Below are positions 18,980-21,411 of a stretch of 64,000 nt of DNA, piece by piece. The stretch comes from an uncultured Clostridia bacterium (GTDB lineage Bacteria > Bacillota > Clostridia > TANB77 > CAG-508). The stretch covers positions 213,028 through 277,027 of the forward strand of contig CALXAT010000001.1 of assembly GCA_944386365.1 (NCBI GenBank). The letters run 5' to 3'. Each line of letters begins with the position of its first letter. The stretch's first letter is position 1. The position numbers and the translations under genes were made by a program. The notes beneath the pieces are model-generated. The model searched no databases, had not been told where the DNA came from, and saw only the letters and a program-made list of their open reading frames with translations.

Positions 18980-21411
18980 TTATTTCCTAATTATGAGCTT
19001 ATTATCTGTAAAATCAACAACTACTTTACTTGAAGGTTTAATTTCTTGTGTTAATATTTTTTCCGCAATCAATGTTTCTAATTTTTTTGTAACAAATCTC
19101 TTCAATGGTCTTGCACCATATACTTCATCATAACCATTATCAATTAAATATTCTTTTGCTTTATCTGTTAATTCTAATGTAATATGTTTATCTTCCAATC
19201 GCTTTTCCAAATCTAATATCAACAAGTCTAATATTTTTGTAACTTCTTCTTTCTTTAGTGGTTTGTAGAATACAATTTCATCTAAACGATTTAAAAATTC
19301 TGGCCTAAAGCTTTTCTTTAATAAGTCATTTACTTTTTCTCAGGATGTGCTTTTTCAATTTCATCAAATAAAACAACGGCATATGGTTTTCTTCTAACGG
19401 CTTCTGTTAATTGCCCTCCTTCTTCATATCCTACATATCCTGGAGGAGCCCCAATTAACCTTGAAGTAGAATATTTTTCCATATATTCTGACATATCAAT
19501 TCGAATTAAATTATGCTCATCATCAAATAAACATTCAGCTAAACTTTTGGCAAGTTCTGTTTTTCCAACACCAGTTGGACCTAAGAATAGGAAAGAACCT
19601 ATTGGTTTTTTTGGATCACTAATTCCAGCTCTTGACCTCATAATAGCTTCTGAAACGTCTTCAACCGCTTCATCTTGTCCAATTACTCTTTTATGTAAAA
19701 GATCTTTTAAATGTAATATTTTTTCTCTTTCGCCTTCCATAAGTTTTGCTACAGGTATGCCTGTCCATCTTGAGACAATTTCTGCAATTTCATCTGCTGT
19801 CACTTTATTTCTTAACAAAACATTTTCTTTTGTATTTTCCTTTTTTTCTTCTTCTTCTAATTGCTTTTGTAATTCAGGTAATTTTCCATATCTTAATTCG
19901 GCAACTTTATTTAAATCATAACTTCTTTCTGCTTGTTCAATTTGTGCATTTGTTTTTTCTATTTCTTCTCTTAGTTTTTGTACTTTTTCAATAGATTCTT
20001 TTTCATTATCCCATTTAGCTTTCATTGCATCAAATTTCGTTTTAAGTTCTGATTTTTCTTTTTTAATATCTGCTAATCTTTGTTTTGAAAATTCATCTTT
20101 TTCTTTTGATAATGCTGTTTCTTCTATTTCTAATTGCATAATTTTTCTTGAAACTTCATCTAATTCTACTGGCATTGATTTCATTTCAGTTTTTATTAAA
20201 CTACATGCTTCGTCCACTAAATCTATTGCTTTATCTGGTAAAAATCTATCAGATATATATCTATGTGATAATGTTGCTGCGGCAATTAAACTATTATCAG
20301 AGATTTTTACTCCATGAAATACTTCATATCTCTCTTTTAATCCTCTTAAAATAGAAATGGTATCTTCAACACTTGGTTCATCAACCATTACTGGTTGAAA
20401 ACGTCTTTCTAATGCTTGATCTTTTTCTATATATTGTCTATATTCATTTAATGTCGTTGCACCTATACAATGTAATTCGCCTCTTGCAAGCATTGGTTTT
20501 AGAATATTTCCTGCATCCATTGCGCCATCTGTTCTTCCAGCTCCAACAATCGTATGAATTTCATCAATAAATAAGATAATTTTTCCTTCACTTTTCTTTA
20601 CTTCTTGTAAAACAGCTTTTAATCTTTCTTCAAATTCTCCTCTATATTTTGCACCTGCAACTAATGATCCCATGTCTAAAGAGAATATTGTACAATCTTG
20701 TAAACCTTCTGGTACATCTCCTCTTACGATTCTTAATGCTAAACCTTCAGCAATGGCTGTTTTTCCAACACCTGGTTCACCAATTAAGCATGGATTATTT
20801 TTTGTTTTTCTTGATAAAATAGTAATGACATTTCTTATCTCTGTATCTCTACCTATTACAGGGTCTAGTTTTTGTTCTCTTGCCATTTGAACTAAATCCT
20901 GTCCATATTTTTTTAAGGCATCATATGTACTTTCTGGATTATCACTTGTTACTCTAGTATTTCCTCTTACACTTAACAAAGCTTTTAAGAAATCATTTTT
21001 GTTAATATTGTATCTTTTAAATATTTCCTTTATATTACTACTTGGATTGTCAAATATTGCAAGCATTATATGTTCTACGGAAACATATTCATCTTTCATC
21101 TTATTTGCTATTTTCTCAGATTTTGTAAGTACCATATCAACATCTTGAGAAACATATATGCTGTCTGATTTTCGAGCTCCTCCTATCATTTTAGGATCGC
21201 TTTCTACGCTATTTCTTATATCTCTTTCAAAATTTTCTGATACGCCCATCTTATTTAATAATTCTTTTATTAGACTATCCTCTTGTTCTAATAAAGCTAA
21301 AATTAAATGTTCTTCTTCTATTTGTGAATTTTGATTTTGTACTGCTAAATCTTGAGCTTTTTGTATTGCTTCTAAAGATTTTTGTGTGAATTTTTGTGCA
21401 TTCATTTTCAT
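18980..21411 (-). pseudogene. clpB: ClpB chaperone gene disrupted by an internal deletion plus frameshift
   Basis: The 693-aa N-terminal ORF (21411-19330) ends ...[15 protein letters not shown]. The C-terminal ORF (…KSFRPEFLNRLDEIVFYKPL…GARPLKR…) begins in the +2 frame immediately after it. About 50 aa that every ClpB carries between AHPD and FRPEF are absent, including the conserved [16 protein letters not shown]…GRTVDF.NT sensor-1/Arg-finger block. Confidence 0.7.

Follow-up and report, generated by a model that had tools for sequence, protein, structure and literature searches.

ClpB and Hsp104 are class-1 AAA+ disaggregases (TIGR03346; structures 1QVR, 4LJ4 and 6OAX) in which an N-domain, NBD1, an M-domain coiled coil, NBD2 and D2-small follow one another in that order. 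Members of the ClpB family are DnaK-dependent disaggregases without a ClpP-docking loop. Threading is driven mainly by NBD2, and disaggregation by E. coli ClpB requires both E678 and R756, the latter being the arginine finger of NBD2, located in the motif PEFxNRxDE (PMC6593972). D2-small is required for ClpB oligomerisation, and deletion of the C-terminus abolishes self-association and reduces ATPase and chaperone activity, as far as the work of Mogk 2003 and Barnett 2000 is described in PMC3527473, where the same effect of truncation is shown for ClpC1. A shorter product of the clpB gene also exists naturally: ClpB-80 of E. coli, described for M. tuberculosis as well (PMC6168691), is made from an internal start, lacks the N-domain only and is active. 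Genes with a programmed frameshift, such as prfB (+1) and dnaX (−1), are a second point of comparison, in that two frames of one gene meet at a defined site.

The window, by which we mean the whole 64-kb stretch of DNA analysed, carries on its minus strand a clpB gene in two pieces (Table 1). ClpB is the best family match for both pieces, and their parts follow the ClpB order. The gene had been described in an initial annotation as interrupted and frameshifted, and so it is: the 5′ ORF stops at a TAA at 19330-19332, preceded by three out-of-frame codons (EKK), and the remainder of the gene lies in the −1 frame. The 5′ ORF is 693 aa long from its first ATG and 691 aa long from the ATG at 21405, which is the start used by the gene callers (protein P0001). 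The N-domain repeats, the NBD1 Walker A and B motifs and the long coiled coil of the M-domain, an insertion in NBD1, are all found in it. The GEPGVGKT and ILFIDE motifs of its NBD1 align with K212 and E279 of E. coli ClpB, while the NBD2 motifs that have been kept, Walker A (GPTGVGKT), the pore loop (GYVGY) and Walker B (VVLFDE), align with K611, Y653 and E678. In this the gene agrees with ClpB: each of the two rings still has its Walker A, its Walker B and its pore-loop tyrosine. The numbering is that of the E. coli ClpB sequence, with which all residue numbers given in PMC6593972 and bioRxiv 10.1101/428458 agreed.

Table 1. Positions of clpB, its lesion and other features of the window
Feature	Coordinates	Strand	Remarks
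prfB	11118-12218	+	Programmed +1 site at ∼11180-11195: Shine-Dalgarno-like GGTGAG, then CTT TGA C
AT-rich stretch	16744-18433		∼1.7 kb, no ORF of at least 100 aa; between DUF2726 gene and nitroreductase gene
clpB, whole gene	18980-21411	−	
clpB, 3′ fragment	18980-19339	−	−1 frame relative to 5′ fragment; 119 codons plus stop
clpB, 5′ fragment	19330-21411	−	N-domain, NBD1, M-domain coiled coil, first half of NBD2
Deletion junction	19339-19341	−	CATCCTG (19341), A (19340, ambiguous 1-nt microhomology), GAAAAAG (19339 onward)
Ala codon GCC	19378-19380	−	Ser in the intact sister and in 116 of 118 full-length homologues; RRKPY-S-VV, before NBD2 Walker B
Region upstream of clpB	21412-21480	−	Short intergenic; Shine-Dalgarno-like GGGGGA
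Class A penicillin-binding protein (PBP)	21481-24033	−	Transgly and Transpeptidase; upstream of clpB
Short tyrosine recombinase	24188-25000	+	Phage_integrase profile positions 2-122 of 172 only; adjoins PBP gene
asnB-like asparagine synthase	48918-50769	+	Split by 1-nt frameshift; 30 kb from clpB
asnB, first ORF	48918-49988	+	GATase_7 and Asn_synthase profile positions 2-98 of 354
asnB, second ORF	49960-50769	+	Other frame; Asn_synthase positions 100-354
BRO-N, HD-domain and AAA_33 gene cluster	51251-53884	−	Near 51-54 kb; possible mobile-element remnant

The 3′ fragment covers the last part of the large subdomain of NBD2, where the arginine-finger motif PEFLNRLDE (R756) lies, and D2-small, with the sensor-2 GAR (YGARPL; R815). 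It is not joined to the 5′ ORF, and the gene callers report a 72-aa internal ORF only; the arginine finger, sensor-2 and D2-small therefore lie outside the translated product, in the −1 frame past the stop. Pfam searches matched Clp_N, AAA, AAA_lid_9 and AAA_2 in the 5′ piece, the last at profile positions 1-89 of 166 only, and ClpB_D2-small in the 3′ piece. The NCBIfam profile TIGR03346 (ClpB; length 853) was matched at positions 1-682 by the 5′ piece and at positions 736-852 by the 3′ piece, with positions 683-735 absent. Against an equivalog cut-off of 1232.1 bits, the 5′ ORF scored 1101.7 bits and the 3′ fragment 124.9 bits, whereas the intact protein of a sister strain (P0002) passes with 1337.9 bits. 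Among solved ClpB structures, both pieces align to T. thermophilus ClpB, with ∼50 residues skipped. Unlike ClpB, then, the product of the window gene ends after the NBD2 Walker B and scores below the cut-off; the gene is of ClpB origin, yet its product is no longer a member of the ClpB equivalog.

The sister strain, ∼99.6% identical over the ∼8.2 kb compared, carries an intact clpB of 863 aa (locus L003) whose product is 55% identical to E. coli ClpB, and the window lacks exactly 166 bp relative to this allele. The DNA alignment between the two contains a single 166-bp gap, with flanks that are 99.5-99.6% identical, and the lost segment corresponds to positions 7067-7232 of L003. Missing are the third base of codon D689 and codons 690-744, and with them a peptide of 56 residues, D689-K744; on E. 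coli ClpB numbering, the deletion runs from D685 to ∼K738. On the minus strand, the junction reads CATCCTGA joined to GAAAAAG. The NBD2 sensor-1 (TSN) falls inside the deletion and is missing from the product; in E. coli ClpB we take N719 to be the sensor-1 residue. The initial annotation was correct that the length of the deletion is no multiple of three and that codons have been lost, but its figure of ∼50 codons becomes 55 codons plus 1 nt on alignment to the intact allele. It had placed the lesion at 19226-19335, a range that takes in the stop codon and the first part of the downstream fragment, and the junction itself lies just outside. The deletion of a ‘sensor-1/arginine-finger block’ holds for sensor-1 and not for the arginine finger, which is still encoded downstream and is lost from the product through the frameshift. 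We also considered the DDGR loop as pore-loop 2 of NBD2 and dropped it, since the secondary D2′ loop is at E639/H641, upstream of the deletion (bioRxiv 10.1101/428458).

The two breakpoints share in-register microhomology of 1 nt only. No direct repeat spaced ∼166 nt and no in-register repeat of at least 8 nt was found at the endpoints in the intact allele. Slipped-strand or repeat-mediated deletion was ruled out; just one 7-mer is shared, GAAAAAG, and it is not in register with the breakpoints. Relocation of the segment was ruled out within the 64-kb window, where none of its 15-mers occurs elsewhere. The explanation that we favour, and regard as very probable, is a recent and lineage-specific loss-of-function deletion of 166 bp, without flanking homology, by which clpB has become a pseudogene in one near-clonal lineage of an uncultured, very AT-rich gut Clostridia bacterium.

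Mis-joins are possible in metagenome assemblies, and a nearby AT-rich gap (16.7-18.4 kb) tends to be the end point of contigs of this lineage, among them those behind L003 and L213, so that the region might have been collapsed or mis-joined and the true genome might have an intact clpB. Several lines of evidence make this very unlikely. The same 47-nt junction string is present in the window and in contigs from SAMEA6814401 (L001/L212), SAMEA6814380 (L002) and SAMEA6814382 (L213); the truncated product P0001 is recorded on 25 contigs, of up to 418 kb, 23 of which were read. Since the junction is repeated to the base in separately assembled samples, a chance mis-join, which is not expected to recur, is a poor explanation, and since there is no repeat at the breakpoints, there is nothing for a k-mer assembly graph to collapse. 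The intact gene, moreover, was assembled from the sister strain in the same study with identical processing. Of the loci compared, the SAMEA6814424 contig (L003/L214) is the only one with the intact junction, and among contigs with an identical neighbouring nitroreductase, 22 of 23 (1+15 and 1+5) have the layout of 691-aa and 72-aa ORFs and one has the 863-aa gene.

A second small lesion of the same lineage is likewise reproduced between assemblies. The frameshift in the asnB-like gene (Table 1) lies at GATATGCCT-C-GGAATGGCTGAT, which would read PGMAD if the extra C were taken out and which contains no homopolymer run. The same truncated asnB product was read on 23 contigs (30 blocks in the index), including ERZ24773354 from the unrelated study BRZ_GP, a contig that matches the window at 100% identity over 5071 bp. 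Since this lesion recurs across contigs, small lesions of the lineage are faithfully reproduced between assemblies. The assembly-artefact reading is already largely refuted. The initial annotation had left open whether the gene was genuinely lost or the assembly collapsed; finding the same junction in separate assemblies upholds genuine loss, and the 1-nt microhomology, with no repeat, speaks against collapse.

The assemblies are independent in the sense of having been separately assembled, not of representing separate mutation events. The carriers form a near-clonal group, sharing 100% and 99.92% identity with the window, and the three further samples whose junction was directly read come from one study (ONAT22-1), have neighbouring BioSample numbers and may be from one host or cohort; it follows that one mutation has been sampled repeatedly, not many mutations. 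A literature search for the sample accessions gave no match. A metagenome search with the 26-mer upstream of the junction, a string that is conserved in many AT-rich clpB genes, gave this species in 0 of the 120 listed matches. The 693-aa form of the product has no exact database match because the gene callers use the second ATG; the 691-aa P0001 was reached by homology search.

The 166-bp deletion, with no flanking homology, has hit the chromosomal clpB of one near-clonal strain lineage. It takes away the helix after the NBD2 Walker B, the β-strand that ends in sensor-1 and the linker after it, and shifts the frame, with translation ending three codons on. The predicted product of 691 aa (∼78 kDa, estimated from length) keeps the N-domain, NBD1, the M-domain and one half of NBD2, and is without sensor-1, the arginine finger, sensor-2 and the entire D2-small. 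Since the ATPase motor is chiefly NBD2 and hexamers do not form without D2-small, such a product should be unable to assemble or to thread substrates, which would leave clpB a pseudogene. We infer from the published truncation work on ClpB and ClpC that the 691-aa fragment is most likely non-assembling and inactive, and it is probably unstable.

The best experimental proxy for the 691-aa product is provided by variants of ClpB (Barnett 2000; Mogk 2003) and of ClpC1 from M. tuberculosis (PMC3527473) that were engineered to end early at the C-terminus and that likewise lack D2-small and part of NBD2. In vitro, these proteins do not oligomerise and their chaperone activity is lost. They differ from the natural allele in being laboratory constructs, from other species and with other end points, and the natural allele adds a 3-residue out-of-frame tail. 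The likeness to ClpB-80 is limited to that of a shorter product of the same gene: the window product is cut C-terminally and is without essential ATPase and oligomerisation elements. Transcription of the gene probably continues, since its upstream region is within the span that is ∼99.6% identical to the intact strain. Inspection of 21412-21480 by eye showed neither a CIRCE nor a CtsR operator.

The consequence for the protein would be different if ribosomes could bypass the stop. A −1 slip on AAA-AAG at the stop (G-AAA-AAG-UAA) would fuse the two frames into an internally deleted ClpB of ∼810 aa, and this rescued protein would regain the arginine finger, sensor-2 and D2-small. The A-AAA-AAG heptamer is shifty, the downstream frame of clpB is exactly −1, and the junction resembles this dnaX-type heptamer with a stop codon directly after it, which is what likens it to a programmed frameshift. 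However, the match is not perfect: the A-site half of the heptamer has the canonical form, but the P-site half begins with G where the dnaX-type heptamer has A. There is no stable RNA structure 3′ of the site (MFE −8.8 kcal/mol against a shuffle mean of −12.65, z = +1.36), with 185 of 200 shuffles folding at least as well as the downstream RNA, and no Shine-Dalgarno-like element was seen by eye upstream of the junction. The site is an accidental product of the deletion and is conserved in no relative, the 118 full-length homologues being single ORFs.

The window also contains prfB, with its +1 frameshift at ∼11188 (Table 1), whose main ORF (PCRF and RF-1 domains) continues in the +1 frame and whose CTT TGA C is canonical and conserved. 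The clpB site differs from that of prfB in being a deletion by-product, unconserved, without stimulatory elements and accompanied by the loss of 55 codons. If the frames were fused, the protein would still be without 55 residues of the NBD2 core and, since these include the central strand and sensor-1, it is unlikely that it would take up the AAA+ fold. We infer that there is no compensating frameshift, and consider rescue by ribosomal slippage very improbable.

The surroundings of the gene are those of a chromosome: the window has a G+C content of 27.6% and carries the ordinary chromosomal genes secA, prfB, rho, yabQ (sporulation), a class A PBP, sua5, smpB, fba and mutS. The stretch missing here, which the initial annotation had ascribed to all ClpB/Hsp104 proteins, is seen in related lineages: against the intact allele the window shows the single 166-bp gap, and of the best 120 ClpB homologues (88-100% identity), 118 are single ORFs of 834-867 aa. 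The pattern for the 56-residue block is matched by 108 of these 120, among which the block is near-invariant. Since dN/dS between intact alleles is 0.03-0.09 and length is intact in 118 of 120, clpB is normally under strong purifying selection in related lineages. The nearest named genomes among the matches listed in a search with the intact protein are uncultured gut Clostridia MAGs with a ClpB identity of at most 75%, and include uncultured Clostridium, Ruminococcus and Eubacterium MAGs.

Against this background, the deletion allele differs from the intact sister in clpB by four synonymous and three non-synonymous changes, and since there are only these seven differences, the deletion is recent. 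Over the 688 residues shared by P0001 and P0002 there is one amino-acid difference, Ala in the window and Ser in P0002. The Ala is common to all deletion carriers examined and is a derived state confined to the deletion lineage. The other two amino-acid changes with respect to the sister fall in the out-of-frame C-terminal tail. The non-synonymous changes, including the near-invariant Ser to Ala, hint weakly at relaxed constraint, in counts too small to test.

Loss of clpB might also have been favoured in a thermally stable gut niche, or a fragment made up of N-domain, NBD1 and M-domain might keep substrate or DnaK binding; we regard this as unlikely. The deletion allele has been sampled far more often than the intact sister, on 25 contigs as opposed to 1 and in 22 of 23 layouts, and its 5′ part is otherwise undamaged, with the one amino-acid change in 688 codons. 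However, frequent sampling is equally explained by one abundant clone in one cohort, and so few changes are in keeping with a very recent event. The other lineages all keep clpB under strong purifying selection, and the three non-synonymous changes among the seven lean, if weakly, to relaxed constraint. It is improbable that a clone without the ClpB disaggregase, or with a 78-kDa holdase or DnaK-titrating fragment, outcompeted the intact sister in the sampled cohort. If it did, the two strains would be a natural near-isogenic pair for the cost or contribution of ClpB in an obligate gut anaerobe.

An intact clpB of a related lineage (L204) has 97% amino-acid and 90.8% nucleotide identity to the window, with a dS of about 0.6. 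Upstream of it are a KAP NTPase, a SpoVT/AbrB-like regulator and a Y1 transposase in place of the PBP gene, while downstream the nitroreductase has been kept. The surroundings of clpB have been rearranged between lineages although the proteins are near-identical.

Inactivation of a gene by a small non-homologous deletion is commonplace, and there is no new system, mechanism or family here. For annotation, a loss-of-function deletion means that clpB is to be recorded as a pseudogene in this lineage, and that the 691-aa and 72-aa ORFs are not to be propagated as proteins; since the frameshift is a true biological lesion, there is no assembly error to correct. The exact junction is a handy strain marker for following the clone in metagenomes. 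With the intact sister in the same study, the lineage also offers a natural near-isogenic contrast for the dispensability of ClpB in a gut anaerobe. With clpB and asnB both broken, the clone may be accumulating pseudogenes.

Scans of the 64-kb window against Rfam and for tRNAs found nothing, hence no rRNA or tRNA, and the AT-rich stretch accordingly has no Rfam match and no tRNA. This stretch contains direct repeats of ∼30 nt (CCTAAAAAATAAAAACGGCTTAAAATCGATT-like) near 17648 and 17812. Besides the two contigs already mentioned as ending in or at the edge of it, the BRZ_GP contig does so by coordinate arithmetic, and since several lineage contigs end there, a repeat or coverage problem is suggested. 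The class A PBP encoded upstream of clpB has a C-terminal low-complexity tail of ∼130 aa that is rich in Thr, Asn and Ser.
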